This document shows positions 8,939-29,049 of a stretch of DNA of 64,000 nucleotides, one piece after another. The DNA is from Dehalococcoidia bacterium (lineage in GTDB: Bacteria > Chloroflexota > Dehalococcoidia > GIF9 > UBA5629). The stretch lies in assembly GCA_003142375.1 (NCBI GenBank), contig PLME01000011.1, positions 14,599 to 78,598 on the forward strand. Direction: 5' to 3'. The position numbers and the translations under genes are program-made. The notes beneath the pieces were generated by a model. That model worked only from the letters and a program-made list of their open reading frames with translations. It ran no database searches and was not told the origin of the DNA. The number at the start of each line of letters is the position of its first letter. Within the stretch, counting starts at the first letter, position 1.

Positions 8939-10507
8939 ATGAATATTGGAAGTTTGCTGGATGACAACATACAGAGGTTCGGCGAATATGATTTTGTATG
9001 CTTCGAAGGTAAATGGCATTCCAATGTTGCAATAAACTTGGCTGCCAACCGGCTGGCAAATGCGCTGAAAAATCTGGGAATTGGTAAAGGGGACAGGGTT
9101 GGCGTTCAACTGTTGAATTGTCCGCAGCTAATGGAATCTTTTTTCGCCATTTTCAAAATCGGCGCTATTTTGGTGCCGGTCAACCCATCTCTTCGTTCGG
9201 AGGAATTGGCATATCTTTACCAGGATGCAGGTTTGGCAGCCCTGATCACCAGCACTGATTTCATGGACAAGATCAGGGCAGCTAAAGGGAAGGCTCCCGA
9301 CCTGAAATATGTGATCACAATAGAAAAGAAAGTTCCCCAAGATGCCCTGTCCTACGACATAATCACAGGGCGGGAGCCGGGTGAGATTGCTCTAACGGAA
9401 ACGGGCAACGACGACGTGGCCGTCATCATCTACACGGCCGGCACTACAGGCAATCCCAAAGGGGTAATGCTGACGCACTATAACTGGTTTACGCACATCA
9501 CCGGGTATTATGAACTGGTTTTACTGGACAGAAGGGGTATCGAGGTAAAAGGCAGGGAGGCGACCGTGTTTGGGGTGGCCCGTAACCGCGTATCGCTGGT
9601 TACGCTGCCTCTTTACCATGGTTACGGAGTATTCGCTATGAATCTGGAGTTCCTCACCGGTGGGAGAATGATACTGCTTTCGCGCTGGGATACTGAGGAA
9701 GCGATGAAATGCATTGAGCAATACAGGGTTAGTGAATTCCGCGGCGTTCCAACCATGTACATCCAGTTGCTTAATTACCCCGCCGCCGATAAATACGATT
9801 TAAGCTCACTGCAGGTGTGCATCTGTGGCTCTGCCCCGATGCCCCTGGAGGTCGCCCGGCAATGGAAAGCGAAGTATGGCATCGATATATGGGAGGGCTA
9901 CGGGTTGAGCGAAGCGACGACCGTCAATTGCGGTAATATAGCCGCCGGGAAGGAGCCGAGGTACGGTTCGATCGGCAAGTGCTATCAAAAATGTAATACC
10001 ATATCAATATTCGGCCCGGACGACAGGGAACTGCCGGCTGGCGAGATAGGTGAGATAGTTATCAAGGGTCCATGCGTTATGAAAGGCTACTGGAACAAGC
10101 CCCGGGAAACCGCTGAGGCCATAAGGGATGGTTGGCTTCATACTGGGGATGTCGGCCGTAAGGATGAAGACGGTTACATTTATATCACCGACCGCAAGAA
10201 AGACCTCATCATCCGCGGCGGGGAAAACGTATATCCCACAGAGGTGGAGAACGTCCTTCACAGGCATCCGCAGGTGATGGAATGTGGTGTTATCGGCATC
10301 CCGGACAGCACGTATGGGGAAGAGATCATGGCTTTTATAGTACTCAAGACCGAAGGCTCAGCCACAGAGGAAGAGCTGATAGATTTTTGCCGGGAGCAGT
10401 TGCCGGCCTTTAAAAGGCCCAAGACCATCCAGTTTATGGACTCCCTGCCCAAAAGCTCGGTAGGCAAAATTTTGAGAAGGGAATTGCGCATTAATAAACG
10501 CGGTTAA
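8939..10507 (+). CDS. AMP-dependent acyl-CoA synthetase/ligase (long-chain-fatty-acid--CoA ligase family)
   Basis: AMP-binding motif YTAGTTGNPKGVMLTH. C-terminal GWLHTGD and K at the end (PKSSVGKILRREL). Confidence 0.85.
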   Translation: MNIGSLLDDNIQRFGEYDFVCFEGKWHSNVAINLAANRLANALKNLGIGKGDRVGVQLLNCPQLMESFFAIFKIGAILVPVNPSLRSEELAYLYQDAGLAALITSTDFMDKIRAAKGKAPDLKYVITIEKKVPQDALSYDIITGREPGEIALTETGNDDVAVIIYTAGTTGNPKGVMLTHYNWFTHITGYYELVLLDRRGIEVKGREATVFGVARNRVSLVTLPLYHGYGVFAMNLEFLTGGRMILLSRWDTEEAMKCIEQYRVSEFRGVPTMYIQLLNYPAADKYDLSSLQVCICGSAPMPLEVARQWKAKYGIDIWEGYGLSEATTVNCGNIAAGKEPRYGSIGKCYQKCNTISIFGPDDRELPAGEIGEIVIKGPCVMKGYWNKPRETAEAIRDGWLHTGDVGRKDEDGYIYITDRKKDLIIRGGENVYPTEVENVLHRHPQVMECGVIGIPDSTYGEEIMAFIVLKTEGSATEEELIDFCREQLPAFKRPKTIQFMDSLPKSSVGKILRRELRINKRG

Positions 10508-12730: not shown

Positions 12731-12853
12731 TCAAAGACGGATGCGGGCTACCGATGAGATTTCAGCTAAATACTCTCATAAGGGATATTGACATATACTG
12801 CCGCTTATATTATATTAAAGCAATGGTATCTAAGGGAGGTTATAAGTTCAAGA

Positions 12854-14403
12854 TGAAAGTAGTATTTAATTCGACATGGAGAATAGTCCTTGCCCTGGCG
12901 GTGATGTTGAGTTTCGGACTGGCAAACGCCACACCAGTGCAGGCATTTGCAAACCCGGCCTTAGTAACACTTTTAGGCGCCGGGAATTTTGCGGTTCTGG
13001 CAGGAGCGGCAATTACAGATGCAGGGGCTGGTACGCATATCACTGGAAATGTTGGGGCGTACCCCATTACTGGCGCCGCTATCGGCCTAGTATGCACACA
13101 AGTGACTGGAATTATTTACCAGAGTGATGCTGCTGGCATGGGATGTTTTGTGACGGACCCTGTTAACCTGAACACGGCTATGATCAACAGGTTAGCCGCT
13201 TACACAGACGCTAACAGCCGGACAGCTGATATTACTGGCCTGGGCGGTGGTACTGTTGGCCCTCAGACTCTCGTTCCCGGCGTCTATAAATGGACTACCC
13301 CTGTGACAATAACAGGCGATCTCGTTCTGTCGGGTGGCCCCAATGCCGTTTATATCTTTGAGATAGCGGGAACCCTTGACATGGCCACCAACAAAAGCAT
13401 ACTCCTGAGCGGTGGCGTACAGGCTTCCAACATATTCTGGGCAGTCGCTGGCGCAACGACCCTACTTCCAGGCTCACACTTTGAGGGTAACATCTTGTCT
13501 GGGTCGAACATCGCCATGCAAAGTCTTGCATCTATCAATGGCAGGCTGTTAGCACTGACTGGGATCACATTTGATCACAATGCCATTATAAAGGCAGTTT
13601 TTGTGCCACCGGCCACCACACTGGCAGTACTCGGAATATCCACCCCGCGTATTGGATGCATTGCCACTGATGTGACGGTAACCGCCTTTGATGGAGCTAA
13701 CAACGTCGTTCCGAGTTACCGTGGCACCATCCACTTCACCTCAACGGATTCGGCGGCAGTGCTGCCGGCGGATTACACTTTCGTCGCCGGTGATGGTGGT
13801 ATACACACCTTTACTAACGGGGTAATTTTATCCACCGCTGGAATACAGACGGTGACAGTCATCGATGTTGCAAACGGTCTCACTGGCACCAGTTTCCAAA
13901 TCACTGTTGTTCCCTGCCAGGGTCCTGTGCCCACCCCTGGACCTGGTATAACATCACCAGTGATCTCCACGGTTGCCCCGACTCTTCCCCCATCTGGTAG
14001 AGCGATTCCTGGGGCAGGCGCACAGGGTGGTCCGGCGGCGCTGCCGAGCTTTGTAATTACTAAGCTATGCGTTGATTCTGACAATGTTACACTCTGTCTG
14101 AAAAACACCATGGCTTATTCCCAGACATTGGTAGTTATACTGAAATCAAACAATGTCGACATCGGCCAAAAAACATTTAACCTATCGCCAAATGCCGAGC
14201 TTTGTGCCTCATGGTATATAGATGCCGCACAAGCAAAAGGAAACCTCAGGGTCAATATCGGAGGCATTGTAGAGAAGGATGTTCCATCTTGCGGTGTTGT
14301 AGTGCAGCAGTCTATTGATTGGTTGCTCTGGGTGATAGTAGCACTGTTCGTCATAGCCGTCATCGGGCTGCTGCTGTACTTCCTCACGAGGAGGAGGAAA
14401 TAG
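12854..14403 (+). CDS. cell-surface protein with an ice-binding-like (DUF3494) domain, a Big-like domain and a C-terminal TM anchor
   Basis: Signal peptide MKVVFNSTWRIVLALAVMLSFGLANA. DUF3494 signature (FAVLAGAAITDAGAGTHITGNVGAYPITGAAIG). Ig-like region. C-terminal hydrophobic stretch followed by TRRRK. GGAGG upstream of the 12854 ATG. Confidence 0.7.
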
Positions 14404-14440
14404 GCTCAGCAAACGGGTACTTTCTGTTAGTATAATCTTA

Positions 14441-14477
14441 GATGGGGCACATCATATGATGTGCCCCATCTTTTTTT
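14441..14477 (+). terminator. intrinsic terminator (perfect 15-bp stem GATGGGGCACATCAT/ATGATGTGCCCCATC followed by T7)
   Basis: Perfect palindrome followed by TTTTTTT, 38 nt after the stop codon of the ice-binding-like gene. Confidence 0.75.
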
Positions 14478-14578
14478 CTATATTATTTTCATTTTTAGGT
14501 TGATGGCAGCATGGTCAAAGGCCTTCTATAGTTTCTATCGTCACGCAATTGGAATTTGTTAGGGGGGAAGCTTTGAAG

Positions 14579-14595
14579 TGGTAGGCCGTGCAGGA
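14579..14595. repeat. 17-bp direct repeat TGGTAGGCCGTGCAGGA, identical to the 3' end of tRNA-Lys (putative attL)
   Basis: Exact match to 24536-24552. The surrounding sequence differs on both sides. Confidence 0.6.
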
Positions 14596-15068
14596 TAAAA
14601 GCAAGAACTTTTTCTAAGACTTACACATTACCTCAATGATATGAGAGAGCTCATGGTCCCAAAACAAGCGCACTAAAAGGCGGTAACCGCTTGCCTCCTT
14701 TGGATATAAGACTATCAATATAGATATAGAATAGTCAAGGACGGCCATAGCCAGCAGGCTATCAGGCTGGCAGTCAATAGCGTGATGCCCACTATCCGGT
14801 GATAGTGTGCGCTATACTCGACGTCGTAATGTCTGCCAGACACATTCATCATTTCACACATCCCGATTTTTTCTAAAGTTTCAACCGGGCTATGTGTAGG
14901 CGGAATATATAATAAAAACGCTAACTATACTAACCTTGGCTAACGCTATTAAAAACTTCAAGTTGAGGCCAGGGTAATTTAATAACTGGTTCCTTTTGCT
15001 GATTACGGCTGGTATAGAAAAGGGGAGGCTCTCAATAATCGGAGGATTCTAATTATACATGGACTAAA

Positions 15069-18000
15069 TTACGGTGGTGGGGTCATCCTCACCTCGACCC
15101 AGTGTTCCTTATGGTCGTCAACAAGAGGGATGGTCTTATCGTGTTGCTCAACGCCATCCACGCTCACGCGCATCTCACCATTCCCGGCAGGCGTTTGCAG
15201 GACCGCGATGTGGTAGACCGTCTCCCGATAGCGGTAGTGCATCTTGAACCCCACCCAATCCGCAGGGAGGCACGGCGTAAAACGCAGTTTATCCACTTCA
15301 AGTGTGAGCCCCAGGAGTGATTCCACGATCAGCCGGTACATCCAGGCGGCCGAGCCCGTGTACCATGTCCAGCCGCCGCGGCCGGTATGCGACGGTGCCG
15401 CATAGACGTCGGCGGCAACGACGTAGGGTTCCACTTTGTAGGTGGCAGTCTCCTCGGTCGATCTTGCATGGTTCACCGGGTTGATCATGGTAAAGAGCTC
15501 CCACGCGCGCCGGTTGTCCCCCAAGCGAGCGAAGGCCATTGCCGCCCAGATGGCCGCATGCGTGTACTGCCCGCCGTTTTCTCTAACTCCGGGGACGTAC
15601 CCTTTGATGTAGCCGGGATTCAGCGCCGACTTGTCGAAGGGCGGATCCAGAAGTTGGATCAGCCCATGCTCGCGGCGAACGAGGCGCTCGTCCACCGCTT
15701 CCATGGCCATGCGCGAACGCTCATGATCTCCCGCACCTGAAAGAACAGACCAGCTCTGCGCTATCGAATCAATTTGGCATTCGGGGTTAACTGACGATCC
15801 AAGCGGCGAGCCGTCGTCGAAATAAGCGCGGCGGTACCACTTTCCATCCCAGCCATTCTGCTCGAGATTCTGGCGCAGTTGAGCCGCCTCCCTCTGGCAA
15901 CGTTCGACGAAAGATAGGTCACCCCTTGTACGGGCAACCTCCATAAACTGCGTGAGTACTTCATAAAGGAAAAATCCTAACCACACGCTTTCGCCTTTGC
16001 CGTGTTCGCCCACCAGGTTCATGCTGTCGTTCCAGTCACCGGAGCCGATGAGCGGCAGGCCGTGTACACCGAATTTAAGGCTATTCAGGATGGCTCGGAC
16101 ACAGTGTTCGTAAAGACTCGCTACCTCTTCAGAGCGCCCGGGCAGATCGTAATAACAGTCTTCATCAGCGTTTACCGAGCGGCCCTGGATGAAGTGGACG
16201 GGCTCATCCAACACGCCGGTGTCCCCGGTGGTGAGGACATAGCGGCACGTCGTGAGCGGCAGCCAGAGGTAATCGTCCGAACAGTGAGTACGCACACCCC
16301 GACCCGTTGGAGGATGCCACCAATGCTGAACATCTCCTTCCAGGAATTGACGGGACGCACACAGGAGCAGGTGCTCGCGCGCGAGATGCGGCCTGGCGTG
16401 GATTAGGGCCATCACGTCTTGCAACTGATCGCGGAAACCGAAGGCGCCCCCCGACTGGTAGGTTGCGCTTCGCGCCCAAAGGCGACACGCCAGAGTTTGG
16501 TATAGCAGCCAACCGTTGGCCAACACGTTGATGGACTGGTCGGGTGTTTCCACATTTACCGCACCGAGGGTGTGTGTCCAGTGCTGCCATACCACATCGA
16601 GGGCGCAGCGCGCAGCGTTTGATCCTCGAAAACGGTTGACCAGGTTTCTCGCATCGTCTACGTCTCGCCCTAGGCCGAGTCTGAAGATGATTTCACGCTC
16701 TTGCCCGGCGGCCAGATCGAAGCTCACCTGGATCGCGGCGCAGGGATCCAGGGCGGCCCCCACCTTGTTGGAAAGGCGCGTGCGCGTCATAGCGGCAGGA
16801 GCGCATAGCGTACCGTTGCGTCCCAGGAATTCAGTCCGATCGCCACTTATGGTGCGAGTCGTATCGTCCACGTCGAAGAACGCAATCCGGTCAGGGAACT
16901 CCGTGTTGTATGGGTTGTGTGCGAAGAGCGCGCCGCTATCCGGGTCAATTTCGGTGATCACGTGCATGGTCGATTTCGGTCGCAGGTCGCCAAGCACCCA
17001 TTCCACATATCCGGTAGCGGAGAGCCGGCGGGATCGTCCCGACTCGTTGAATACTTTGAGCACCGTAAACTTGATCGCTGCGTCCATAGCCACGTAAACC
17101 CATAGCTCGGAGCGGATGCCGCGCTCGGTGTGTTCAAAGACGCTGTAACCGAATCCGTGCCGGGTGACGTAAGGCGTTGCCCCGCGGCAGGGCAACGGCG
17201 TGGGCGACCAGAAGTAGCCGCTCTCTTCATCACGGAGGTAAAATGCCTCTCCTCTCGAATCGCCCACGGGATCGTTCTCCCAGGGAGTGAGGCGGAACTC
17301 GTGAGCATTCTCGCTCCAGGTGTAGGCAAGACCGCTCTCTGAGATGACGGTCCCGAAGTGCGGGTTGGCCAGCACATTCACCCAAGGAGCCGGTGTCAGC
17401 TGCCCGTGCGCTGTGGTAATAACATACTCGCGCCCATCCGGGGTGAATCCGCCCAGCCCATTGTAGAACGTCAGATCGTGGCGTGGCAACGAGGCGACCG
17501 CCAGGGGTTCGGAGCGGCGGGTTCGGGTCGGGATAAGGAGGGGCACGGTTACTTCCACCTGACTACGACCGTTGATCTGGTCCACCAGCGACCCCCGGCT
17601 GTCGCTGATGATGGCGCGAGCGACCGCTTGGATTAGGATGCGATCCTCCTCCGCTATCTGCTCCGCAGGTCTTACGAAAATGCCGCCGGGTCGATCGGTC
17701 ACGTTGGCTTCGATGCCTGCGGCAATGAGCCCCATGACCTGGTCGTGGAGGAGTTGCCGGTAACCTGCGTGATCTTCGTTCCAGATCACCAGGTCCACCG
17801 CTAGTCCTTTGAGATGCCAGTACGCGTGGGCCTGCACGAGTTGGCGCACCAGATCGATATTGGCCGGATTTTCAATCTGCAGCAGCACAATCGGCAGATC
17901 GCCGGAGATGTCGTAGCTCCAGAGACCGGATTGCCCCCGGCGGTTCTTGATGAGGACACTTGGGTCGGCTCGCAGCGAAGCATTAGCGTAGATGATCGAG

Positions 18001-21000
18001 CTGGCAAGGTGCCCATAGAGTTGCGCATCGGCTGCGGAGGCATTGAACTGGCGCAGCAGCACATGGCTATGTGTCCATGCCAAATCAAAGACGCGGTCCG
18101 CGAGACGCCGATCCTGGTATTTTCCCACAAGACGTAAGGCTGCACCGCGGGTTTCACCGATGCCGGTGACAATGTTTATCGTTGCCGATTCTTCGGGATC
18201 CAGCGTTATCCGATAGCGGATGGCTACAATCGGATCGAGCACAGAGCCCTCGCTACCCGAGAGCGCTTCAGTAAAAACACCAGCGCCCCCGCTCATCGCC
18301 TGTGGATCGGCGACGGTGTTACCGCGGCCGATGAACTGCATGCGATCGGTCTCATAGGAAACATCTCCGATCTCCGCTCCATGCACGACCATCAGGTGAA
18401 ACATCCAGGGCGCCTGCTCGCCCTGGGAGCGGGGCCGGCGAGTGCAGAGGATCGCTCGCTGCCGGCGGATGATCTCGGTCTGGACAAATAGATTGCTGAA
18501 CGCCGGATGCAGTGCGTCGGCGGCAGGCAGTGCCAGAACCACTTCCGCATAACTGGTAACATCGATCGCTCGGCGCGTACGCGCGCGGTTGGTGACGCGG
18601 ACTCGGCGTAGTTCGATATCATCCTCGGGCGAAACAGCGATCTCGGTATAGGTTTCATAGTCGTGGTCGCGACAGCGAAACTCGGCTCGCCCTTCCGAGA
18701 AGATCGCCTCAAAATGCTTCGACCGTTTGAGCGCCGGCTGATAGGCCGTTGACCAGAATTCCCCACTCGTCACGTCGCGGAGGTAACAGAACGTGCCCCA
18801 GTTGTCGCAGGTGCGGTCTTCGCGCCAACGGGTAACGGCGAGGTCCTTCCAGCGGCTGTAACCGCCGCCGGCACTGGTGATCATCACATGGTACCTGCCA
18901 TTCGAGAGCAACTGCACTTCCGGGTTTGGCGTGTCGGGGCTTGTGAAAACGCGAATCGGCGTCTCCGAAGCGCTGGAAGCCGTATGATACTCGGAGAGCT
19001 CGGAGGTGTGCGCATAGAACGCTGTCGCCTTGGGGATTCGCTCCTGCAGCAACAGCATGGTCGCCTGGAACAAGGGATCCGACTCGAATCGCTTCTGCAT
19101 CTGGCGGTCCAGGAGCAGATGCGCCAAAGACAGGAGACTCATGCCCTGGTGATGGGCCATGAAGGACCGAACCACGACCCTCGATTGTCCGCGCGGCAGA
19201 TGCGACGGAGTGTAGTCGATCGCCTCGTAGAAGCCATACCGGGTTTCAAAGCCTTCAGCAGCGAGTCGTTCGAGGTTCAGGCACGCCTCCTCGGGCGCCA
19301 CCATCAGCGCCAGTGCCGAGGCATAAGGCGCAATCACCAGGTCCTCGGCGAGCCCGCGTTTGAGCCCCAGGCCGGGGACACCAAAGGCGCTGTATTGGTA
19401 GTTGAGATGCACATCGATGGCATTGTAACCACATTCCGAAATGCCCCAAGGCACCCCGCGTTTTTTCCCATATTCGATCTGCCTGGCCACCGCCGCCTTA
19501 CAGGTCTGGTCGAGCAGCGTGGGTTCGTAGGTCGGCATCACCAGGAGCGGCATCAGGTATTCGAACATCGAACCGCTCCACGAAAGGAGGATCGGTTCTC
19601 CACCGGCGGTAGTCAGCAGACGTCCCAGGGCAAACCAGCTCTCCTGCGTCAGTTGTCCCTGCGCAATCGCTACGAAATAGGAAAACCTCGCTTCCGAAGC
19701 CAGGAGATCGTAGTAACTGGAGTCCCGCTGGCATTCACCGACATGATAGCCGATAGCTAGCAGATGACGCGTCTCGTCAAACAGAAAGTCATATTTCATC
19801 CGGGCGAATGCGTCGCATTGCGTGGCAAGTTCTTTGATAGCCGCAATCCTTGTTCTGGCGTGCTGGCTGGCTGCCGTGATGAGGCGTTGAAGTTCACCAA
19901 GCCAAGCGCTTTCCGCCGACGTGGTGGCAGAGCTGAGCCGATGTACGATCGCCGGCAGGAGCTTCACCTCCAGTGCTGCCAGTTCGTGCAATGTTGGGAT
20001 CTCGTCGAGATCGGGAAAGTCTCCGAGGCTATTCGGAGAAGAAAAGAGCACTGTCCATGGAGCGAGAAACGTCAGCTCATCGAGGGCATCTCGACATTGC
20101 TCGGCGAAGGCGTGGGCCCACCACCTCAATTGGCTCTCGGTGTCGGCATCGAGAGCTTCCACGTCGGTGACCACTACCGCAGCGGACGTTGCCAGCTGAT
20201 CAAGGCACAGCCGCGAAGCCATGAGCGTGGTGAGTTGGGAACGGGTCGCGGACTCCAGATCCTGCTGAAGTTGAGCGAGTTGGGCCGGGGCGTATACTTC
20301 CGGAGCGGCGGCCGCCGCGTCTATGACAATCCTGAGAGTGTCGCTTAAGCCCTCAAAGAATCGCGTTTCCAGGATCTTGTGATCGGCAAGTCCGAGCAGA
20401 CCCGGCCGCAATGTCAGCAGATGGCCTGCGAGGTTCCCGCTGTCCACCGACGAAATGTAGAGGGGCAGCAGTGGTTTCAGAGATTGCGTATCATACCAGT
20501 TGTAGAAGTGGCCTTGGTGTCGTTCCAGGGTTTCCATGGTGCAGAGTGCCTTCGCTGTACGTTCGATGAGTTGTCGGGCCGAAAGGTAGCCGAAGTCATA
20601 CGCGGACAAATTCGCCAGCAACGCAAGGCCCATGTTGGTAGGCGATGTGCGATGTGCGATGACCGCAACAGGATTCTCCTGATAGTTATCAGGCGGCAGC
20701 CAATTATCTTGCGGGCCGATGAAGGTCTCGAAGAACGCCCAGGTTTTCCGGGCAAGCTTCCGTAGAAAGAGGGTCTGATCCACTGTCATCCCTGCTCGGC
20801 GGCGAGCGAGCGGCCGACTGATCCACCAGGCGATAGCGGGGGAGCCAAACCAGAGGCACAGTATGGGCCCAGCCACAGCCAACACGGCCGGTTTGGATGC
20901 AGCAAGCGTGATCACCACAGCAACGGCAACGAGCGGGCCGATCCACATTGTCCGACATGAGCCGACAAGGTCCGTGCGGCTATTGCGATCCGAGTTGCCC

Positions 21001-23822
21001 GACGGATTCCATTGGAGCAGTCGCTTATGCGTGATCAGCATCCGCCAGGCGGTGCGCACCATGGCATCCAGACTGAAAAACGCTTCGTATGGCAGGCATA
21101 CGAGCGTGAATGCAGCCTGAACGAAGTGACGGCGGGCCGAGCGCACTGCGGCAGCGAGGTGCAGTCTCAGAGTCACATCGACTGGCTTTTGAAGCGCATT
21201 CAGGGCCGAGGCTATCAAAGAAGGAATCAGGATGATGCCTATCACCGCCAATGTCCAGAACCAGGCCGATGGTAACACGGTCCAGCCCAGAAGCAAGAGG
21301 AGTGTCAATGCCGTGGGGGTGAGGCTACGCCGCAGGTTGTCGAAAATCTTCCATCTCGACAGCCCCGAGAGTGGATTTTTCTCCAGGCGTGAGTCGGGGC
21401 CGGGAACGTTAGGCATCACCCACTGCGCAATCTGCCAATCCCCGCGAATCCAACGGTGCCGGCGGCTGACGTCCGCACTGTAGAGGGAGGGGTTTTCCTC
21501 GTATAGCGGCACATCACTCAATGACCCGGACCGGATGTAACACCCTTCCAGAAGATCGTGGCTGAGGATCCGGTTATCGGGGAAACGCCCGCCCAACACC
21601 CGCTCGAATGCATCAACATCATAGATGCCCTTGCCGATGAACGAGCCTTCACCGAACAGGTCCTGGTAAACATCGGAAACGGCGCGCGTATACGGATCGA
21701 TGCCGAGCTCATTGGCGCACATGCGCGCATACCGCGATCGGTTCGTGCCGGGGAGGCTCACTGCCACCCGTGGCTGAAGAATGCCGTACCCCGCAACAAC
21801 ACGCTGCTGGTCTTCGTCGTAACGTGCACGATTGAGTGGGTGCGCCATGGCGCCCACAAACTGCCACGCCGAATCGCGTGCAAGTTGCGTATCGGTATCC
21901 AGGGTGATCACGTACTTCACGTCCGATAAGACCGTGGTTTCACCGACGATGAGAGCGAAGCGATCACTTGATCCTCCGCGCAAAAACCCATTCAAATCGG
22001 CAAGCTTGCCGCGCTTGCGCTCGTAACCCATATAGATCCGGTCGCACGGATTCCATCGGCGAGGGCGATGAAACAGGAAGAAGGTATCGCCTTCTTGACT
22101 CCTGTACTTTTCGTTCAGCTCTTCGATTCTCTGCCGGGCCAGCCGCAACAGCGGTTCGTCTTCCGGCAGCGTTTTTTCGATGGCGTCGTGAAAATCAGTG
22201 AGCAAACCGAAGTGGAGGTGATCATCCCGATTTGCCAGGAAGCGGACTTCCAATCCCTCGATCAGGTCCTCAATGTTTTGAGTGCTTGTGAGAATCGTCG
22301 GGACCACAACCAGAGTTCGCAATTCCTGCGGGATCCCTTGGGAAAAATCCATGCGCGGCAGCGGTTGCGGCGTCGCCAGCAACGTCGCCAGCCAGTTCAC
22401 CACCGCTACCGCCAGATGACTGGCGCAGAGAATCGATAGGAGTCCGATCAGCCCCAATGCCCAACCCTGCAACCCATCGGCGTACGCCTTCGCCGCGAAG
22501 CACCCGGCTAAGATCGCTGTCATCAGAAGGATGGTGCCGCTATACAGCAGGAAAGGAAACCGGCGGCTGGCTTTGCGCAGAACCTCAGCAGACGATAAGC
22601 GCACCTCCGTCATTCGTTCGAGCTGCGCCAATCCCTCGTCGATCAGGTAGAAGCCGACGTGCGCTGCGCGTTCGTCGCCGCCTTTCCGTGCCGCTACCTC
22701 ATTTGCCAGATTGATCGCTTTGCGCGCCACCTCGCTCTCGGAGTAGGGACAGCTCTTCGCAGACTTCTCCACGACGTGACGGTAGCGATCACGGGTGGCA
22801 AAATCCATCTTGCCGTAGACGCCGCCAGGATCCTCACTCAGGATCTGCTCAACAATGCTCATCGTCTCGACAAACTCGCGCCAGTCCATCGCGCCCAGTA
22901 AGCGGAGGCTGCCGATGCTGTTGCTCATCGAGACCTGGTCGGCAGTTTGTTGTTGGTTCTCCGAGCGCACCAACTGTTCGATGGTCAGTCCAACCTCAGA
23001 CAGTCTCTGTTCAATCCAGGTAAGCGGCACTGCAAGAGCGGGACCCTGGCCCTGCAAGCGACGTGTGAGCTCCGCAACAAACGAGCTCACCATCGGGGGG
23101 TTCGACCGTGCCATGTCGGAGATCGCCAGAATCAGGCTCTTTGAGTCCTTCTCGGCGATCTCCGTCATCTGGTCGGCCCAATAGTCGGCACGGTTTCGAT
23201 AGATCATGTGGGCGGCGATCAGGGCGGCAATCCGCCGAACATTCTCGATCAGGACCAGGCGCAGCATGATGGGGATAGCCCAAAGTTCGCCCAATTTCAG
23301 GGTGGTCACCGACTGGTAGGCGGCTACGAAACTGCTGAGGTTTTCCGGGTACAACCGTCCATCGCCGTGCGAGATCATCTCCAGAGCGATGTCATACACC
23401 CGCGGAAGCCCAGCCGATGGGCCATTCAGCAAGTGCGGCAGCTCACGGCTATAACCCTTCGGCAAGTATCGCTTAGCCATTCGAATCTGTTCCTCAATCA
23501 AATAGAAATTGTCGAGCAGCCATTCGCCGGCCGGTGTAATCCGGCGGTCTGCCTTGACGTGCTCTGTCAGCAGGTTGTGGACTTCAAGCAGGAGACTTTC
23601 ATTCTCGGCCAGCCGCGCCAGAAGGCGGTCCCGAGGGCGTCCAGGCTTCAACTGGTGCTCACCCGCAAGGATCTTCCCATGCTGCTCCATCTGATCGTCA
23701 CTGAACAGTTCTGATCGAAGGGATAGTTCATCGCCGGCATACTTCTGTGCCAGGTCTTTTTCGCAGAGGCGCGCCCACATACGGGAAAATGTCCCGCGAA
23801 CGGTCTTGCTGCTTATCTTCAT
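15069..23822 (-). CDS. cyclic beta-1,2-glucan synthase-like giant protein (2917 aa; GT84 glycosyltransferase + GH94 phosphorylase-like domains)
   Basis: Size matches NdvB/ChvB/Cgs. N-terminal EWLLDNFYLIEEQIR-type motif. A TM cluster near residue 420. GT84-like core (MGYERKRGKLADLN … DTD). C-terminal GH94-like region with GDWND. AAGGAG RBS. Confidence 0.7.
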   Translation of the reverse strand: MKISSKTVRGTFSRMWARLCEKDLAQKYAGDELSLRSELFSDDQMEQHGKILAGEHQLKPGRPRDRLLARLAENESLLLEVHNLLTEHVKADRRITPAGEWLLDNFYLIEEQIRMAKRYLPKGYSRELPHLLNGPSAGLPRVYDIALEMISHGDGRLYPENLSSFVAAYQSVTTLKLGELWAIPIMLRLVLIENVRRIAALIAAHMIYRNRADYWADQMTEIAEKDSKSLILAISDMARSNPPMVSSFVAELTRRLQGQGPALAVPLTWIEQRLSEVGLTIEQLVRSENQQQTADQVSMSNSIGSLRLLGAMDWREFVETMSIVEQILSEDPGGVYGKMDFATRDRYRHVVEKSAKSCPYSESEVARKAINLANEVAARKGGDERAAHVGFYLIDEGLAQLERMTEVRLSSAEVLRKASRRFPFLLYSGTILLMTAILAGCFAAKAYADGLQGWALGLIGLLSILCASHLAVAVVNWLATLLATPQPLPRMDFSQGIPQELRTLVVVPTILTSTQNIEDLIEGLEVRFLANRDDHLHFGLLTDFHDAIEKTLPEDEPLLRLARQRIEELNEKYRSQEGDTFFLFHRPRRWNPCDRIYMGYERKRGKLADLNGFLRGGSSDRFALIVGETTVLSDVKYVITLDTDTQLARDSAWQFVGAMAHPLNRARYDEDQQRVVAGYGILQPRVAVSLPGTNRSRYARMCANELGIDPYTRAVSDVYQDLFGEGSFIGKGIYDVDAFERVLGGRFPDNRILSHDLLEGCYIRSGSLSDVPLYEENPSLYSADVSRRHRWIRGDWQIAQWVMPNVPGPDSRLEKNPLSGLSRWKIFDNLRRSLTPTALTLLLLLGWTVLPSAWFWTLAVIGIILIPSLIASALNALQKPVDVTLRLHLAAAVRSARRHFVQAAFTLVCLPYEAFFSLDAMVRTAWRMLITHKRLLQWNPSGNSDRNSRTDLVGSCRTMWIGPLVAVAVVITLAASKPAVLAVAGPILCLWFGSPAIAWWISRPLARRRAGMTVDQTLFLRKLARKTWAFFETFIGPQDNWLPPDNYQENPVAVIAHRTSPTNMGLALLANLSAYDFGYLSARQLIERTAKALCTMETLERHQGHFYNWYDTQSLKPLLPLYISSVDSGNLAGHLLTLRPGLLGLADHKILETRFFEGLSDTLRIVIDAAAAAPEVYAPAQLAQLQQDLESATRSQLTTLMASRLCLDQLATSAAVVVTDVEALDADTESQLRWWAHAFAEQCRDALDELTFLAPWTVLFSSPNSLGDFPDLDEIPTLHELAALEVKLLPAIVHRLSSATTSAESAWLGELQRLITAASQHARTRIAAIKELATQCDAFARMKYDFLFDETRHLLAIGYHVGECQRDSSYYDLLASEARFSYFVAIAQGQLTQESWFALGRLLTTAGGEPILLSWSGSMFEYLMPLLVMPTYEPTLLDQTCKAAVARQIEYGKKRGVPWGISECGYNAIDVHLNYQYSAFGVPGLGLKRGLAEDLVIAPYASALALMVAPEEACLNLERLAAEGFETRYGFYEAIDYTPSHLPRGQSRVVVRSFMAHHQGMSLLSLAHLLLDRQMQKRFESDPLFQATMLLLQERIPKATAFYAHTSELSEYHTASSASETPIRVFTSPDTPNPEVQLLSNGRYHVMITSAGGGYSRWKDLAVTRWREDRTCDNWGTFCYLRDVTSGEFWSTAYQPALKRSKHFEAIFSEGRAEFRCRDHDYETYTEIAVSPEDDIELRRVRVTNRARTRRAIDVTSYAEVVLALPAADALHPAFSNLFVQTEIIRRQRAILCTRRPRSQGEQAPWMFHLMVVHGAEIGDVSYETDRMQFIGRGNTVADPQAMSGGAGVFTEALSGSEGSVLDPIVAIRYRITLDPEESATINIVTGIGETRGAALRLVGKYQDRRLADRVFDLAWTHSHVLLRQFNASAADAQLYGHLASSIIYANASLRADPSVLIKNRRGQSGLWSYDISGDLPIVLLQIENPANIDLVRQLVQAHAYWHLKGLAVDLVIWNEDHAGYRQLLHDQVMGLIAAGIEANVTDRPGGIFVRPAEQIAEEDRILIQAVARAIISDSRGSLVDQINGRSQVEVTVPLLIPTRTRRSEPLAVASLPRHDLTFYNGLGGFTPDGREYVITTAHGQLTPAPWVNVLANPHFGTVISESGLAYTWSENAHEFRLTPWENDPVGDSRGEAFYLRDEESGYFWSPTPLPCRGATPYVTRHGFGYSVFEHTERGIRSELWVYVAMDAAIKFTVLKVFNESGRSRRLSATGYVEWVLGDLRPKSTMHVITEIDPDSGALFAHNPYNTEFPDRIAFFDVDDTTRTISGDRTEFLGRNGTLCAPAAMTRTRLSNKVGAALDPCAAIQVSFDLAAGQEREIIFRLGLGRDVDDARNLVNRFRGSNAARCALDVVWQHWTHTLGAVNVETPDQSINVLANGWLLYQTLACRLWARSATYQSGGAFGFRDQLQDVMALIHARPHLAREHLLLCASRQFLEGDVQHWWHPPTGRGVRTHCSDDYLWLPLTTCRYVLTTGDTGVLDEPVHFIQGRSVNADEDCYYDLPGRSEEVASLYEHCVRAILNSLKFGVHGLPLIGSGDWNDSMNLVGEHGKGESVWLGFFLYEVLTQFMEVARTRGDLSFVERCQREAAQLRQNLEQNGWDGKWYRRAYFDDGSPLGSSVNPECQIDSIAQSWSVLSGAGDHERSRMAMEAVDERLVRREHGLIQLLDPPFDKSALNPGYIKGYVPGVRENGGQYTHAAIWAAMAFARLGDNRRAWELFTMINPVNHARSTEETATYKVEPYVVAADVYAAPSHTGRGGWTWYTGSAAWMYRLIVESLLGLTLEVDKLRFTPCLPADWVGFKMHYRYRETVYHIAVLQTPAGNGEMRVSVDGVEQHDKTIPLVDDHKEHWVEVRMTPPP

Positions 23823-23835
23823 TTTTGATGTCTCC

Positions 23836-24300
23836 TTGTACCACTTCTCAAGTCACAATTGCCAGGGTGTGAAGAGGGAGAATTACCTCTGGAACTGGCG
23901 GCCGGTAGCCGAGAGCACTGTGAGATCGCGTGTGGTTGTATTCCTTTCTCTACATATCCACAAGCACCTTGGCCTCAAGCAGCGTTGTGAAGATGTCTCG
24001 ATTGAGCAACTCGTCCCTCAGTTTCCCGATGAATGACTCGATGTAGCCATTCTCCGACGGACTCCCCAGTTCTATGAACAACGCCCTCACTCCAAGTCGT
24101 TCCAACCATTGACGTACGGCTCTGGCTGTGAACTCAGGGCCATTGTCTGATCTGATGTGCCGGGGAGTGCCTCTGATGACGAAGAAGGTACACAACTGAT
24201 CAATGACGTTCTGTGAGCTGATACGACGGTTAACCACCATGCCCAGACATTCTGTGGTGTACTTGACCTGCTCCCAATAAGTGTACCACTTTTTAAGTTA
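23836..24300 (-). pseudogene. IS3-family (IS2-group) transposase OrfB, integrase-core fragment: N-terminally truncated, with an in-frame amber stop replacing the conserved Trp
   Basis: Translation …HIRSDNGPEFTARAVRQWLERLGVRALFIELGSPSENGYIESFIGKLRDELLN…LLEAKVLVDM*RKEYNHTRSHSALGYRPPVPE. The DM*RKEYN position corresponds to DMWRxEYN in intact relatives. No N-terminal half or OrfA is present. Confidence 0.75.
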
Positions 24301-24535
24301 AGTGATTGAGCCCGTGAGGGCATCCCCTTTTATGTACCAACCGTAATGCTAGTTTTGCGGGCCATGAGTCCACGAGTGCGTGGAGAGTCGTTACCATCTC
24401 GTGATAGTATGCGTTGTACCCTGCATCCAAAGTCGTTTCAGATAAGTGCAAGCCATAGAATCAGTGTGTCGGCAGGACCTGTGATCTGACACACTGATTC
24501 GTCTGTTAAAATGAAGTCGACCTGGTGGGTTTGTA

Positions 24536-24611
24536 CTTGGTAGGCCGTGCAGGAATCGAACCTGCGACCCACTGATTAAAAGTCAGTTGCTCTACCAACT
24601 GAGCTAACGGC
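24536..24611 (-). tRNA. tRNA-Lys (anticodon TTT)
   Basis: 76-nt cloverleaf GGGCCGTTAGCTCAGTTGGTAGAGCAACTGACTTTTAATCAGTGGGTCGCAGGTTCGATTCCTGCACGGCCTACCA. Anticodon loop CTTTTAA. Confidence 0.9.
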
Positions 24612-24721
24612 CCATTCACGGGATGTGGTTTCAGGAGAAACCGACTAAAAAGTTTATCACAATCTTATTCGCAGAGACAATTAAAGGCGTGACAATAGTT
24701 GCTGAAGCTTCAAATAAAAGG

Positions 24722-24796
24722 TGGAGCGGGTGAAGGGATTCGGACCCTCGACGTCTTGCTTGGGAAGCAAGCACTCTACCGCTGAGTTACACCCGC
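24722..24796 (-). tRNA. tRNA-Gly (anticodon CCC)
   Basis: 75-nt cloverleaf GCGGGTGTAACTCAGCGGTAGAGTGCTTGCTTCCCAAGCAAGACGTCGAGGGTCCGAATCCCTTCACCCGCTCCA. Anticodon loop TTCCCAA. Confidence 0.9.
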
Positions 24797-24841
24797 ACAG
24801 ACGGAATTATATTAGAAATCTCCTATATGTCAAGTAGACGG

Positions 24842-25285
24842 TCACCCTTTTTTATTTACCCATTCTGGTGTCGCTATTTCGGCATTTAAAAAAGGTTCCC
24901 GCAGGTACGGCTTAATATCCAGTACAGGCGAGCCGTCGATGGCATCCAATCCTACAACGGTTAGCAGATTGGCTTTTCTTTTGACCAGTTTGACTACTGT
25001 AAGGCCTATCGGGTTGGGACGTACCGGGCTTCTGGTGGCGAAGACCCCTTTTAAAGGCAGAGTGGGGTTGCGGTATGGGTGTACTTTCATGATCAGCCGC
25101 TCGCTTTTTTTAACCTTGTGCAGCCAGAAGACAATAATAAGGTGGGAGAAAGACTCGATTCCATCAAGAGCTTTTTCGTAAGCCGGGTCAACAATTACCT
25201 GAGCTTTCAAATTGCCGCGAGCAACTTTGCGCCTGCTTTTGATACTGCTTTTTATAAAGCCGATGGGTTCCAGCCTGTCTGTCAT
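24842..25285 (-). CDS. trmO: tRNA (adenine37-N6)-methyltransferase TrmO/TsaA (YaeB family)
   Basis: YaeB-family core (RPNPIGLTVVKLVKRK…LDAIDGSPVLDIKPY). Start taken at MTDRLEPIGF. Confidence 0.7.
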   Translation of the reverse strand: MTDRLEPIGFIKSSIKSRRKVARGNLKAQVIVDPAYEKALDGIESFSHLIIVFWLHKVKKSERLIMKVHPYRNPTLPLKGVFATRSPVRPNPIGLTVVKLVKRKANLLTVVGLDAIDGSPVLDIKPYLREPFLNAEIATPEWVNKKG

Positions 25286-25402
25286 ATCACAAGTATAGAA
25301 GATTTGATTTGAATGCATCAATTGCAGGTTGAATGAAGTTGAACAACCGTTCGAATAGATATACAATCAATAGCGCTTCAAATATTATTCCTGGAGATTA
25401 AC

Positions 25403-26884
25403 ATGCCCAAACCTTCGCTCGATTATTTATTTAATCCCACCTCAATTGCCATTGCCGGCGTGTCACCGGATGCAGCCAGGCCCAACCTGGCGCAACTATT
25501 TGTAAGTACACTCAGAAACTTTGGTTTTAAGGGTGAGATTTACCCTCTTCACCCATCCGGTGGTGAGCTATTTGGTACGAAGGTATATACCAATGTGCGT
25601 GAAATACCCGGCCCGGTCGACTACGTTATATCGGCTATACCCGCACGTTTCACACCGCAACTGATAACCGACTGCGTGGCCAAGGGAGTAAAGGCTGTCC
25701 ACCTCTTTACCTCAGGTTATGGGGAGATCGAGGACGAGATAGGCAAGAAGCTCGAAGGGGAAATATTGAAGATAGCCCGCAAGGGCGGCATGCGCCTGGT
25801 AGGGCCGAACTGTATGGGACTCTACAACCCGTCGTCGGGACTCACATTCGCCGGAGATTTTCCCGACCAGATAGGTTTCCCGCGCCAATCCGGGTCTCTG
25901 GGTTTGATTTCTCAGAGCGGAGGCAACTGTATTTACACTATTCGTGAAGCAGCAGGTAGGGGCGTATTTTTCAGCAAAGCCATAAGCTATGGAAATGCCG
26001 CCGACCTAAATGAAACGGATTATCTGGAATATATGGCGGAGGATGCTCAAACCAAATTGATCGCCATGTATATCGAGGGTGTAAGGGACGGCAAACGTTT
26101 CATGCAGGCGTTGAAAAACCTGGCCGGCAAAAAACCTGTGATAATCAATAAAGGCGGCAATACGGAGACGGGAGCCAGGGCCTGCGCCTCTCATACTGGC
26201 TCCCTGGCAGGGTCGGCTGCCATATGGCACGATCTTATTAAGCAGGTTGGGGCGATCCCGGCTGGAAGCATCTCGGAACTGGTCGATATGGGCGTGGCCT
26301 TTCTCAAGATGAAGGTGCCCAATGGCCGGAATACGGTCGTCATCGGCACCGGTGGTGGCATCGCCGTCCAGGCTTCCGATGATATCACCGGGGCCGGCCT
26401 GGACCTGCCCATTTTACCCCTGGAAGTCAGGAAAAAGCTGGTGGCTATATATGGTACCGAGGCCGGCAGCATCTTCAGGAACCCGGTTGATGCGCCGCCT
26501 ATGGCGAGCGTAGAAAAATACGTGGAGGCGGTTAAAGCCATAGCAGAATCCGACCAGGTCGATGTGCTGATTTTGCATTGCCCCTTTGACATCTGGGCCA
26601 TGGTAAGCCGCAGCCTGCCGCTCAGGCCTTTCATCGAAACGGTGGCTGTACTGGCGAAAGTAATAGATAAGCCTATGGCTGCAGTGCTGCACTACGATAC
26701 AAACTCCGGTTCGAGGCAGATGGTTGAAGACGTGCAGAAGAAATTCGTGGACCTGGGCTTGCCTGTCTATCCCTCAATACAACGTGCCGCGACGGCTATA
26801 AATAAATATATAGAGTATTACGAGCGGCTGAGGGGCGAAAACAGATTATCAAGGGTTTCCGGCAGCAAACGAAAAGCCTGCTGA
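25403..26884 (+). CDS. acyl-CoA synthetase (NDP-forming) alpha-type protein (CoA-binding + succinyl-CoA-synthetase-like flavodoxin domains)
   Basis: N-terminal CoA-binding fold (SIAIAGVSPDAARPN…) and ligase-CoA domain. No ATP-grasp partner is adjacent. Confidence 0.6.
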   Translation: MPKPSLDYLFNPTSIAIAGVSPDAARPNLAQLFVSTLRNFGFKGEIYPLHPSGGELFGTKVYTNVREIPGPVDYVISAIPARFTPQLITDCVAKGVKAVHLFTSGYGEIEDEIGKKLEGEILKIARKGGMRLVGPNCMGLYNPSSGLTFAGDFPDQIGFPRQSGSLGLISQSGGNCIYTIREAAGRGVFFSKAISYGNAADLNETDYLEYMAEDAQTKLIAMYIEGVRDGKRFMQALKNLAGKKPVIINKGGNTETGARACASHTGSLAGSAAIWHDLIKQVGAIPAGSISELVDMGVAFLKMKVPNGRNTVVIGTGGGIAVQASDDITGAGLDLPILPLEVRKKLVAIYGTEAGSIFRNPVDAPPMASVEKYVEAVKAIAESDQVDVLILHCPFDIWAMVSRSLPLRPFIETVAVLAKVIDKPMAAVLHYDTNSGSRQMVEDVQKKFVDLGLPVYPSIQRAATAINKYIEYYERLRGENRLSRVSGSKRKAC

Positions 26885-26885
26885 C

Positions 26886-27755
26886 CTATTTAAGGGCCTT
26901 CTTAACCGTTATCCCGATCTCTGCAGGATTGGGAGCAATTATAGCCCCGGCGGCGGATAAAGCCGCCATCTTATCCTGTGCTTTCCCCGTATTACCGCTG
27001 ATAATAGCTCCGGCATGCCCCATGCGCCTGCCGGGAGGAGCGGATGCTCCAGCTATGAAGGAAACCACAGGTTTGCTCACCCTTTCTTTAATGAATTGGG
27101 CTGCTTCCTGTTCCATGGTGCCTCCGATCTCCCCGATGAGCACGATAGCATGTGTGTCCTTATCTTCCTGAAAGAGTTTCAATATATCCACAAAGTTCGT
27201 TCCCAAAAGGGGGTCGCCGCCTATTCCCACACAGGTGGACTGCCCGATACCGAATCCGGTCAATTGAGCCACTGTCTCATAAGTAAGCGTGCCGCTACGT
27301 GAGACCACGCCCACATTGCCCTGCTTGTGAATCTCACCTGCCATGATGCCGACCTTGCACTTGCCAGGCGAAATTAAACCGGGGCAATTGGGACCGATAA
27401 GACGTACGGGCTTGCCTTTGAGGAAACTGTAAGCGTTAACCATGTCCATTACCGGGATTCCTTCTGTGATGCAGACCACCAGCGCAATGCCGGCATCCGC
27501 CGCTTCCATGATTGAATCGGCCGCCCCGGCTGGGGGGACAAAAATAATGCTGGCGTTGGCGCCCGTTTCCTTAACGGCGCTTTCAACCGTATTAAAAACA
27601 GGCACTCCGGAAACCTGGGTGCCACCCTTGCCGGGCGTCATCCCAGCTACGACCTTGGTGCCGTACTCTATGCAGCGTTGTGTATGAAAGCTGCCTTCCC
27701 CGCCGGTAATGCCCTGAACCAGCAGGCGTGTTTTTTCATCGATTAAAATACTCAA
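26886..27755 (-). CDS. sucD: succinate--CoA ligase subunit alpha
   Basis: [25 protein letters not shown]…; active-site His region GHAGAII. ATGA overlap with sucC. Confidence 0.9.
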
Positions 27756-28924
27756 TCCCGGCCTCCTTTAGCAGCCGCCACAGCTTTGCGTGCAGCATCC
27801 AGGAAATCGGCCGCCTCTATATAGTTGATCCTGGATTCAGCAAGGAGGCGTTTGCCCTCAGTAACATTGGTGCCGGCCAGCCTGACCACAACCGGGACTT
27901 TGATATCTATCTGCTGATAGGCCTCGATTATCCCGCGGGCGATGGTATCCGCCCGTGCCATCCCGCCGAAGATGTTGACCAGGATGGCCTTAACATCCGG
28001 GTCTGCGGTGAAGACTTTAAAGGCGCTGACAACAGCGTTGGTATTGTTCACTGTACCAATATCGAGAAAATTGGCCGCGTTGCCGCCACAGAAATTTATC
28101 AGGTCTAACACTGCCATAGCCAGGCCGGCCCCGTTGACCATGCATCCTATATTGCCGTTTAGTTTAATATAGTTCTTGATGCCCATTTCGCTGGCCCTGG
28201 CTTCGAAGGGATCATCCTGCGCTGGATCGTGGAGCTGCCGGATATCATCGTGTCGAAAAAGGGCGCTGTCATCAAAATTCAACTTGGCGTCAAGGGCCAT
28301 AATTTTGTCATCTGCGGTAATTACCAGGGGGTTTATCTCAGCCAGGGAGCAGTCCTTTTCGCGGAATAACCTGTAGAGGTTGGCCATCAATTTAACGGCG
28401 GGTTTGACCTGGGCCGTACTTAAATTCATGCCGTAGGCCAGCTTACGGCCTTCGAAATCCTGCCAGCCCGCAGCCGGGTCGATGTGAACTTTGAGAATCT
28501 TCTCGGGGCTGGTCCTGGTTACCTCTTCGATGTCCATGCCTCCGGCCTCGCTGGCAATCATGACCGGCATTTTGCGGGCGTTGTCGATAACGATGCTGAG
28601 ATATAGTTCACGCCGCACTTCCATAACCTTTTCCACCAGGACTTTGCCGACGGGCGCTCCTTTGGCGGACGTTTGATGTGTGATCAGCCTTGCTCCAATT
28701 ATCCCGGCAGCCGATTTCTCAGCCTCGGCAGCATCTGCAGCCAGCTTAATTCCACCGGCTTTGCCCCTGCCACCGGCGTACACCTGGGCCTTGACGGCAA
28801 CCTTACCTTCCAGACCGGCGGCGATCTTCTTTGCCTCTGCCGGGGTACTGGCTACATCGCCGGCGGGAACAGGAACCCCATACTGGGATAATAAGGCCTT
28901 AGCCTGATATTCATGTATTTTCAT
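27752..28924 (-). CDS. sucC: succinate--CoA ligase subunit beta (ATP-grasp)
   Basis: [20 protein letters not shown]… canonical SucC. GAGGAG RBS. Confidence 0.9.
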
Positions 28925-29049
28925 CCTGTTCTCCTCTTACCAGCCGTACACTGCTTGGCAAGCGAATTATATATTATTGCGAGTACTAAAGGGGATGTTT
29001 ACTCAATCGAAATACAATGTAGTTATTCTCTAAATTTAGAGCCAATTTT

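Follow-up and report, generated by a model that had tools for sequence, protein, structure and literature searches.

The window analysed here is a 64-kb stretch (64,000 nucleotides of contig PLME01000011.1, Dehalococcoidia bacterium assembly GCA_003142375.1), and our subject is one long gene within it, cgs, a predicted cyclic β-1,2-glucan synthase (Cgs) gene that lies in an insert of about 10 kb beside a tRNA-Lys gene. As given by the list of open reading frames (ORFs) and its translations, cgs occupies 15069..23822 on the minus strand and is a single ORF of 2917 amino acids with an ATG start; a Shine-Dalgarno sequence, GGAGA (23831..23835, minus strand), was read directly from the sequence 8 nt before the ATG. 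Two motifs that had been quoted for the protein were located, MGYERKRGKLADLN at residues 598-611 and GDWNDSMN at residues 2595-2602. An exact look-up of the 2917-aa protein sequence gave no record. Rfam scans, run at gathering thresholds over the whole window and at E ≤ 1 on 23800-24560, returned only four tRNAs, with no riboswitch or other known RNA near cgs.

Pfam identified a Glycoamylase domain at residues 1370-1579, two copies of the GH94 supersandwich domain (PF06165) and a GH94 catalytic domain (PF17167) at residues 2414-2838, and the protein as a whole was collinear with Agrobacterium tumefaciens Cgs/ChvB (PDB 8rf0_A, 2047 bits). Residues 32-416, 421-1177 and 1320-2890, used as separate queries, fell on Cgs in the same collinear order, with residues 32-416 matching 8rf0 residues 22-401 (E = 5e-50) and residues 421-1177 matching Cgs residues 406-1155 (E = 3e-169). 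For residues 1016-1598 the best PDB match was the cyclization domain of TiCGS from Thermoanaerobacter italicus (8wy1, E = 2e-127). Using these alignments together with Kyte-Doolittle hydropathy, we divided the protein (all coordinates on the minus strand) into a cytoplasmic N-terminal domain (NTD, residues 1-421, 22560..23822), in which no hydrophobic segment precedes residue 422; transmembrane (TM) helices 1-2 (residues ∼422-483, 22374..22559, hydropathy segments 422-448 and 453-483); a GT84 domain (residues ∼484-836, 21315..22373, E = 6e-93 in the 8rf9/8rf0 alignment); TM helices 3-6 (residues ∼837-999, 20826..21314, segments 837-861, 856-878, 955-975 and 979-999); a cyclase of family GH189 (CY, residues ∼1000-1612, 18987..20825), assigned from 8wy1, Pfam Glycoamylase and residue alignments; and a GH94 phosphorylase (GP) half (residues ∼1613-2917, 15072..18986), assigned from the Pfam GH94 domains and the 8rf9 alignment. 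The predicted topology has six TM helices arranged 2+2+2, with ∼74 residues between TM4 and TM5; the published Cgs layout consists of a cytoplasmic NTD, six TM helices, GT84, CY and GP, with a TM4-TM5 stretch of 76 residues (PMC10901819).

The soluble N-terminus of about 400 residues had been taken in an earlier note on this DNA, made from the sequence alone, for a possible novel module. Because residues 32-416 align to the NTD of 8rf0, which is described for Cgs (PMC10901819), this region (∼420 residues) is instead the canonical cytoplasmic NTD of Cgs, the homology to a solved structure being decisive. Relative to A. tumefaciens Cgs it is the most diverged part of the protein (174 bits over 385 residues).

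The roles of individual GT84, primer-tyrosine, CY and GP residues in A. tumefaciens Cgs have been published (PMC10901819), and since the DxD motif sits at 624/626 the numbering used there is that of 8rf0. Every published position that we carried over is conserved in cgs (published residue in brackets). In GT84 these are D543 (D527), R601 (R586), the DxD motif D642/D644 (D624/D626), the primer tyrosine Y711 (Y694) in the motif GIDPY of the IF1-homology loop, D756 (D739), the RW motif R790-W791 (R773-W) and R793 (R776), so that the GT84 active-site set of UDP-binding Asp, DxD, catalytic base Asp and RW motif is complete. In CY they are S1124/D1127 (S1101/D1104) and E1377 (E1300), and in GP they are D2465 (D2393) and the catalytic acid D2599 (D2528), which lies within GDWNDSMN. 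The GH189 catalytic set defined in TiCGS, consisting of nucleophile E1442, acid/base E1356, E1400 and H1536/H1537 (PMC10834661), is likewise kept, aligning with E1463, E1377, E1421 and H1557/H1558, respectively. From these alignments, cgs is predicted to encode a complete, full-length Cgs with all three activities; its architecture is not new, and only the host and the genomic context are. Thus the reading frame, the motifs and the domain order (N-terminal region, TM, GT84, TM, cyclase, GH94) given in the earlier note were borne out by the ORF list, Pfam and the alignments, and its identification of the protein as a cyclic β-1,2-glucan synthase was upheld by the 2047-bit collinearity and by the retention of all published catalytic and priming residues.

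The landmark beside the insert is tRNA-Lys(UUU) (24538..24613, minus strand; ARAGORN, and 76 bits to the Rfam tRNA model), next to which lies tRNA-Gly (24722-24796, minus strand). The 17-nt sequence TGGTAGGCCGTGCAGGA occurs exactly at two sites only, 9959 bp apart, and none of 100 shuffles gave a match. The right direct repeat (24538..24554, plus strand) is the intact 3′ end of tRNA-Lys, comprising the CCA, the discriminator, the acceptor stem and part of the T arm, and the left direct repeat (14579..14595, plus strand) is a detached copy of this end and delimits the insert on its far side. Site-specific integration classically leaves such a detached tRNA 3′ end behind as a scar. The ∼10 kb between the repeats contains cgs, a truncated transposase fragment and 473 bp of AT-rich non-coding DNA, and we conclude that cgs is essentially the sole cargo of the insert, as had been proposed. 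The transposase fragment, of the DDE type with rve and rve_3 domains (23950..24240, minus strand), is the only other coding remnant; it encodes 96 aa and is 5′-truncated, with its Pfam rve match starting at profile position 42. The AT-rich segment (14596..15068, 41% GC) forms the left end of the insert downstream of cgs, gives no ORF or Pfam signal and has no homology to any cgs-carrying locus. We scanned the insert ends for remnants by comparing stop-masked translations, namely six frames of 14596-15068 and three minus-strand frames of 24200-24537, with Pfam at E ≤ 1, and no further transposase remnant was found in these frames. A 17-nt imperfect repeat flanking the rve fragment (23837-23853 and 24282-24298) was rejected as being at chance level, with ∼5 such 15-of-17 matches estimated in 11.5 kb.

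The DNA to the right of the insert was used to place the host. The 493-aa CoA-binding protein encoded there is 87-93% identical to proteins of four Chloroflexota metagenome-assembled genomes (MAGs), whose record labels are Dehalococcoidia (UBA1162, SPRUCE 613) and ‘uncultured Chloroflexia’ (two MFD MAGs, one a 2.46-Mb chromosome). Window positions 24454-30000 have 82-87% DNA identity to three of these MAGs (L001, L003 and L004), and the fourth, a short contig (L002), matches 25157-28952 at 86%. Judged by these matches, the host is an uncultured, Dehalococcoidia-like Chloroflexota bacterium. In L001, L003 and L004, tRNA-Lys and tRNA-Gly are followed by TrmO and the CoA-binding gene, and within 9 kb of tRNA-Lys all three lack cgs and a second copy of TGGTAGGCCGTGCAGGA. 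The left flank of the window insert, from the PPDK gene to an Ice-binding-like gene, is not syntenic in these three relatives either, and the tRNA-Lys site is therefore a variable spot in this lineage. The tRNA pair also shows its variability in L004 (OY970123.1, a complete Chloroflexota chromosome), in which ∼1.9 kb (7404-9318) containing an Old-Yellow-Enzyme-type flavin oxidoreductase gene and a 117-aa ORF separates tRNA-Lys from tRNA-Gly; the pair is adjacent in the window, L001 and L003. The same chromosome shows a weak 76-nt similarity (76%) between its positions 2215-2290, which are intergenic and ∼5 kb from tRNA-Lys, and 14744-14819 of the window, in the AT-rich left end of the insert.

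To place the gene itself, we searched for homologues of cgs residues 1-1200 (E ≤ 1e-20), which gave 1629 matches. The top 120, which we inspected, are 66-89% identical, and those named derive from Desulfatitalea, Desulfobacterales, Syntrophales, Desulfobaccales, Nitrospirota, Acidobacteriota and Betaproteobacteria MAGs, with no Chloroflexota label among them. The family is therefore not confined to host-associated Proteobacteria. The closest copy (L009) has 93% DNA and 91% protein identity, confined to window positions 15085-23837, that is, to the gene and 15 nt upstream. Its surroundings are IS21 and ISAZ013 elements, and 10 kb away is a RecA gene whose best named relatives are those of Desulfoglaeba, Desulfacinum and Desulfosoma (Thermodesulfobacteriota), at 82%. 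Three further copies (L010, L011 and L022) have 85-90% DNA identity and stand in other contexts, and each time homology ends at the gene borders. Over the six homologue loci sampled, full-length protein identity is 72-91% and DNA identity is 69-93%. The upstream homology to L009, L010, L011, L021 and L022 stops at 23837, so that the 15 nt of homology still shared by host contexts ahead of the ATG include the Shine-Dalgarno sequence. DNA homology from host to host breaks off within ∼15 nt of either end of the ORF, and cgs seems to move, or to be rearranged, as a unit of one ORF. In the L009-L011, L021 and L022 assemblies (ENA ERZ250394xx-ERZ250395xx), cgs is broken into 2-5 ORFs, in L009 by three single-base insertions; these splits are probably long-read indel errors and not pseudogenes, and because of them most database matches are ‘partial’ proteins of 1000-2100 aa.

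The strongest argument for a recent transfer of cgs between phyla is that the gene is 93% identical to the L009 copy, whereas the host flanks are only 82-87% identical to those of the host's own relatives. On the basis of these comparisons, a recent cross-phylum transfer from Thermodesulfobacteriota-type anaerobes is most likely. The ratio of non-synonymous to synonymous divergence (dN/dS) between cgs and the L009 copy is 0.27 (dS 0.163, dN 0.045), which indicates purifying selection on the gene overall.

The base composition of cgs had been described as strongly deviant in low-GC surroundings. The excess is real, with 59.0% GC in cgs compared with a mean of 50.8% (sd 3.3, maximum 56.7) in the 39 other long ORFs of the window (z = 2.5), but its strength had been overstated. 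At third codon positions (GC3) the values are 69.1% and 58.3% (sd 6.6), or z = 1.6, and with scores of this size cgs departs only moderately from surroundings that, at 50.8%, are mid-GC and not low-GC. Moreover, the gene exceeds its flanks by 5-9 GC points in each of the six other contexts compared (L009, L010, L011, L020, L021 and L022; for example, 62.6 versus 53%), and one copy, of 45% GC in a 40% GC genome, is apparently ameliorated. The GC excess thus looks largely intrinsic to the gene and is weak evidence on its own.

Population data bear on both the arrangement and the state of the gene. This population recurs in no fewer than four JGI metagenomes and in one SRA run, and five contigs from there (L012-L016) are 99.9-100% identical to the window. 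They reproduce the junction between the left flank and the insert, and two (L012 and L013) run past the transposase fragment, to 24459 and 24409, respectively. Because independent metagenome contigs reproduce the arrangement, the insert is not an assembly chimera. Three cgs alleles were found: the 2917-aa allele of the window, a 2915-aa allele (L013) with a 6-bp in-frame deletion (20915..20920) within TM5, and a frameshifted allele (L012) in which a 56-bp deletion with CGG microhomology (22246..22301) puts the start of GT84 out of frame (residues ∼508-526). A separate cluster of eight substitutions within 49 bp (18734-18782; three non-synonymous, codons 1681-1697) distinguishes the window from L012, L013 and L014, and as the alternative allele agrees with L009 at 7 of the 8 positions, the cluster may stem from a short tract of recombination or from a local mixture in the assembly.

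We consider it quite probable, from the sequence comparisons above, that cgs encodes a working Cgs that reached a Chloroflexota lineage from Thermodesulfobacteriota-type bacteria and entered a variable site adjacent to tRNA-Lys. The horizontal acquisition in a tRNA-Lys-associated insert proposed in the earlier note thus gains support from the 17-nt repeat, from the relatives without cgs and from the L009 copy. Several observations nevertheless weigh against this conclusion. Every host context shows the GC excess, which therefore does not count as independent evidence for transfer. No integrase was found in the insert, either among the ORFs or as a Phage_integrase match in the stop-masked translations of its ends. 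An empty site, with the left flank joined directly to tRNA-Lys, was not found, and the exact 32-nt left-junction pattern gave 0 hits in the metagenome_contigs collection, which lacks this population, since JGI contigs do contain the pattern; a metagenome scan with the Ice-binding-like left-flank protein gave no relatives. The right junction is also ambiguous (∼24420-24538), because a hairpin-containing segment of ∼85 bp 3′ of tRNA-Lys (24455..24537) looks like host DNA. This segment is 88-90% identical in L001 and L004, but not in L003, where homology ends exactly at the tRNA, and it is followed in L001 by genes for lipoate ligase, Lpd and a radical SAM protein and in L004 by genes for an aldo-keto reductase and a methyltransferase. 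It is probably host DNA, namely the terminator of the tRNA operon. Either it is host DNA with the right junction near 24420-24455, or it is a relic of an older integration common to the three lineages; because the 85 bp abutting the tRNA also occur in relatives, before housekeeping genes, a one-step integration between the 17-nt repeats is not sufficient to explain the locus. Finally, no sigma-70-like promoter was seen in the 128 bp upstream of cgs, in a scan whose coverage did not extend to Chloroflexota promoter types, and the frameshifting 56-bp deletion of L012 constitutes one allele of the population. Because of that allele, and because a dN/dS of 0.27 is not very low, selection on cgs in this host may be weak.

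One explanation for these latter observations is that cgs is a recently arrived, unused passenger that is decaying in its host, intact in some cells and a pseudogene in others. Two same-population assemblies carrying deletions, one of 56 bp and out of frame and one of 6 bp, would fit such a history, as would the moderate dN/dS, the absence of a recognisable promoter, the absence of an exporter among the ORFs scanned in the 64 kb and the lack of any working mobility gene in the insert. However, the 8.75-kb ORF is open with all catalytic residues in both the window and L013, and dN/dS is well below 1. Flanks and gene are, in addition, 99.9-100% identical among samples, and for this reason the L012 deletion would be either a very recent minority event or an assembly artefact. 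The earlier note had named frameshifts on resequencing as grounds for doubting the gene; one is present in one of the three independent metagenome assemblies (L012), and L013 and the window are intact at that position. We regard a decaying passenger as unlikely, though it is the most serious of the alternatives.

Much less plausible is the possibility that cgs is an old, vertically inherited resident of Chloroflexota, its high GC content intrinsic and the 17-nt repeat an unrelated old scar. The excess of 5-9 GC points in all six other contexts, a GC3 z-score of merely 1.6, the host-like 85 bp beside the tRNA and the missing integrase are all compatible with long residence, but the three related genomes lack cgs at tRNA-Lys, homology between hosts stops exactly at the ends of the gene, the named top-120 homologues include no Chloroflexota label, and the 93% DNA identity to the Thermodesulfobacteriota-type copy exceeds that of the flanks to Chloroflexota relatives (82-87%). 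We think vertical descent very improbable. It has also to be asked whether the protein might be a fusion of a GH94 phosphorylase (acting on cellobiose, chitobiose, cellobionic acid or sophoro-oligosaccharides) that is unrelated to glucan cyclisation, since its C-terminal ∼800 residues match cellobiose and chitobiose phosphorylases with E = 1e-82 to 1e-90. These matches to stand-alone GH94 phosphorylases span only residues ∼2123-2913, however, whereas the other 2100 residues are collinear with Cgs and the GT84 motifs, the primer tyrosine and the GH189 nucleophile and acid/base are all present. The domain and residue tests refute a GH94-only identity, to which we assign next to no probability, and the domain searches, with their Glycoamylase and GH94 domains and the Cgs alignment, did not place the protein in a different family.

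Returning to cgs as an acquired and functional synthase, the data above show which family it belongs to, that its key residues are conserved, how the insert is built, that relatives lack the gene and that another phylum has a near-identical copy; we infer its enzymatic activity, the direction of its transfer, and the fate of the glucan and its role in a monoderm host. The membrane-anchored enzyme would have its catalytic side in the cytoplasm, where GT84 would glucosylate its own Tyr711 from UDP-glucose and then elongate a β-1,2 chain, the GH94 domain would shorten the chain by phosphorolysis, and the GH189 cyclase (nucleophile E1463, acid/base E1377) would free a ring of ∼17-25 glucoses into the cytoplasm. 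Because Cgs is without an export channel, any export of the glucan would require a separate transporter, one not linked to cgs. In terms of linkage alone, no ABC exporter (ABC_tran or ABC_membrane) was found among the ∼40 ORFs of at least 150 aa scanned across the window, in which the only transport proteins were an MFS protein and a solute-binding protein, ∼20 kb from cgs. The missing neighbour exporter had been pointed out in the earlier note as raising the question of whether and how the product leaves the cytoplasm; the observation stands, but it is no peculiarity of this copy, as ABC exporters are likewise lacking within 10 kb of cgs at all six homologue loci. In Brucella, cgs and cgt are unlinked; chvA/chvB and ndvA/ndvB are adjacent. 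Given the homologue loci and the Brucella arrangement, the lack of linkage is ordinary, and a solitary cgs is the usual arrangement in the environmental clade.

The current paradigm classes Chloroflexota, Dehalococcoidia among them, as monoderm (PMC10284905), and we found no literature tying Cgs or NdvB to Chloroflexota. It is conceivable, although we would not expect it, that a Cgs acquired as a single gene across phyla is active in a monoderm Chloroflexota cell without a Cgt/NdvA-type exporter, and that the use made of the glucan is non-periplasmic. T. italicus belongs to the Firmicutes, which are classed as monoderms, so that Cgs would already have one monoderm host.

Comparison with characterised systems shows which features of the locus are distinctive. 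Agrobacterium chvB adjoins the exporter gene chvA, whereas cgs is solitary in its tRNA-Lys insert. A. tumefaciens Cgs/ChvB (8rf0, 8rf9; Sedzicki et al. 2024, PMC10901819) is of similar length (∼2818 aa, versus 2917 aa here) and has the same order NTD - TM1/2 - GT84 - TM3-6 - CY - GP, but its host is a diderm alpha-proteobacterium and the present one belongs to the Chloroflexota, which are classed as monoderm (PMC10284905). TiCGS (8wy1; Tanaka et al. 2024, PMC10834661) shares the GH189 catalytic set with cgs; it comes from a thermophilic Firmicute, the isolated domain alone was characterised, and it has not been linked to any transfer or island. In the environmental Cgs clade of Desulfobacterota, Nitrospirota and Acidobacteriota MAGs, annotated as ‘cyclic beta 1-2 glucan synthetase’ or ‘glucoamylase family protein’, the gene is, as here, solitary, without an adjacent ABC exporter and higher in GC than its flanks; the window differs in being from a Chloroflexota genome, with cgs beside tRNA-Lys and accompanied by a tRNA-end repeat and a transposase remnant. 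Stand-alone GH94 phosphorylases (cellobiose/chitobiose and 1,2-β-oligoglucan) have the GH94 fold and the catalytic Asp in common with the C-terminal ∼800 residues of cgs, but are soluble proteins of ∼800-1100 aa without its NTD, TM, GT84 and GH189 parts. Relative to the Cgs-Cgt/NdvA/ChvA synthase-exporter system, the window lacks a dedicated ABC exporter gene among its scanned ORFs. Finally, the insert resembles a tRNA-targeted integrative island in having a repeat of the tRNA 3′ end at its distal boundary, but not in having an integrase; cgs is absent at the same tRNA in L001, L003 and L004, the left flanks of which differ from that of the window.

Elsewhere in the window, the gene content, which includes PPDK, two fumarate reductase/succinate dehydrogenase flavoproteins, fumarase, succinyl-CoA synthetase, malic enzyme and a β-oxidation set, is consistent with an anaerobic heterotroph. 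A C4-dicarboxylate/TCA-branch cluster at 26886-37696 encodes the alpha and beta subunits of succinyl-CoA synthetase, a two-subunit fumarase, an Fe-S subunit, the two FAD-dependent flavoproteins of the fumarate reductase/succinate dehydrogenase type, malic enzyme and a TetR regulator, and is followed, up to 42283, by the β-oxidation genes (thiolase, acyl-CoA dehydrogenase, 3-hydroxyacyl-CoA dehydrogenase and enoyl-CoA hydratase). A signalling trio at 49610-54735 combines a 711-aa histidine kinase of the 7TM-PAS type with a small response regulator of 175 aa and a protein of 838 aa with REC, four PAS and HD (HD_5) domains. A 321-aa tyrosine recombinase (Phage_integrase with a SAM-like N domain; 55708-56673) is encoded beside hflX, 31 kb from the insert, and is most likely a housekeeping XerC/D-type enzyme and not an island integrase. 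On the left flank (12754-14480), the Ice-binding-like protein (549 aa, PF11999) carries at its C-terminus a hydrophobic anchor that closes with RRRK. Behind its gene comes a terminator, a perfect palindrome of 32 nt (14440-14471), and the independent metagenome contigs L015 and L016 break off inside it (at 14455 and 14463).

Work on cyclic β-1,2-glucans has dealt almost exclusively with Proteobacteria, where they are periplasmic osmoprotectants and factors in host interaction. The cgs finding opens no new mechanism, and it corrects two tempting misreadings, in that the soluble N-terminus and the absent neighbour exporter are both standard for Cgs. It does document the movement of an 8.8-kb single-gene function between distant anaerobic phyla, and finding the synthase intact in a lineage regarded as monoderm hints, in a small way, that the role of these glucans in environmental anaerobes is unexplored. 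Should the enzyme be active in such a cell, the glucan might serve, for example, as a cytoplasmic osmolyte or store, or might be let out under the S-layer by an unrelated transporter, and cyclic β-1,2-glucan biology would then reach beyond the diderm periplasm and host interaction.

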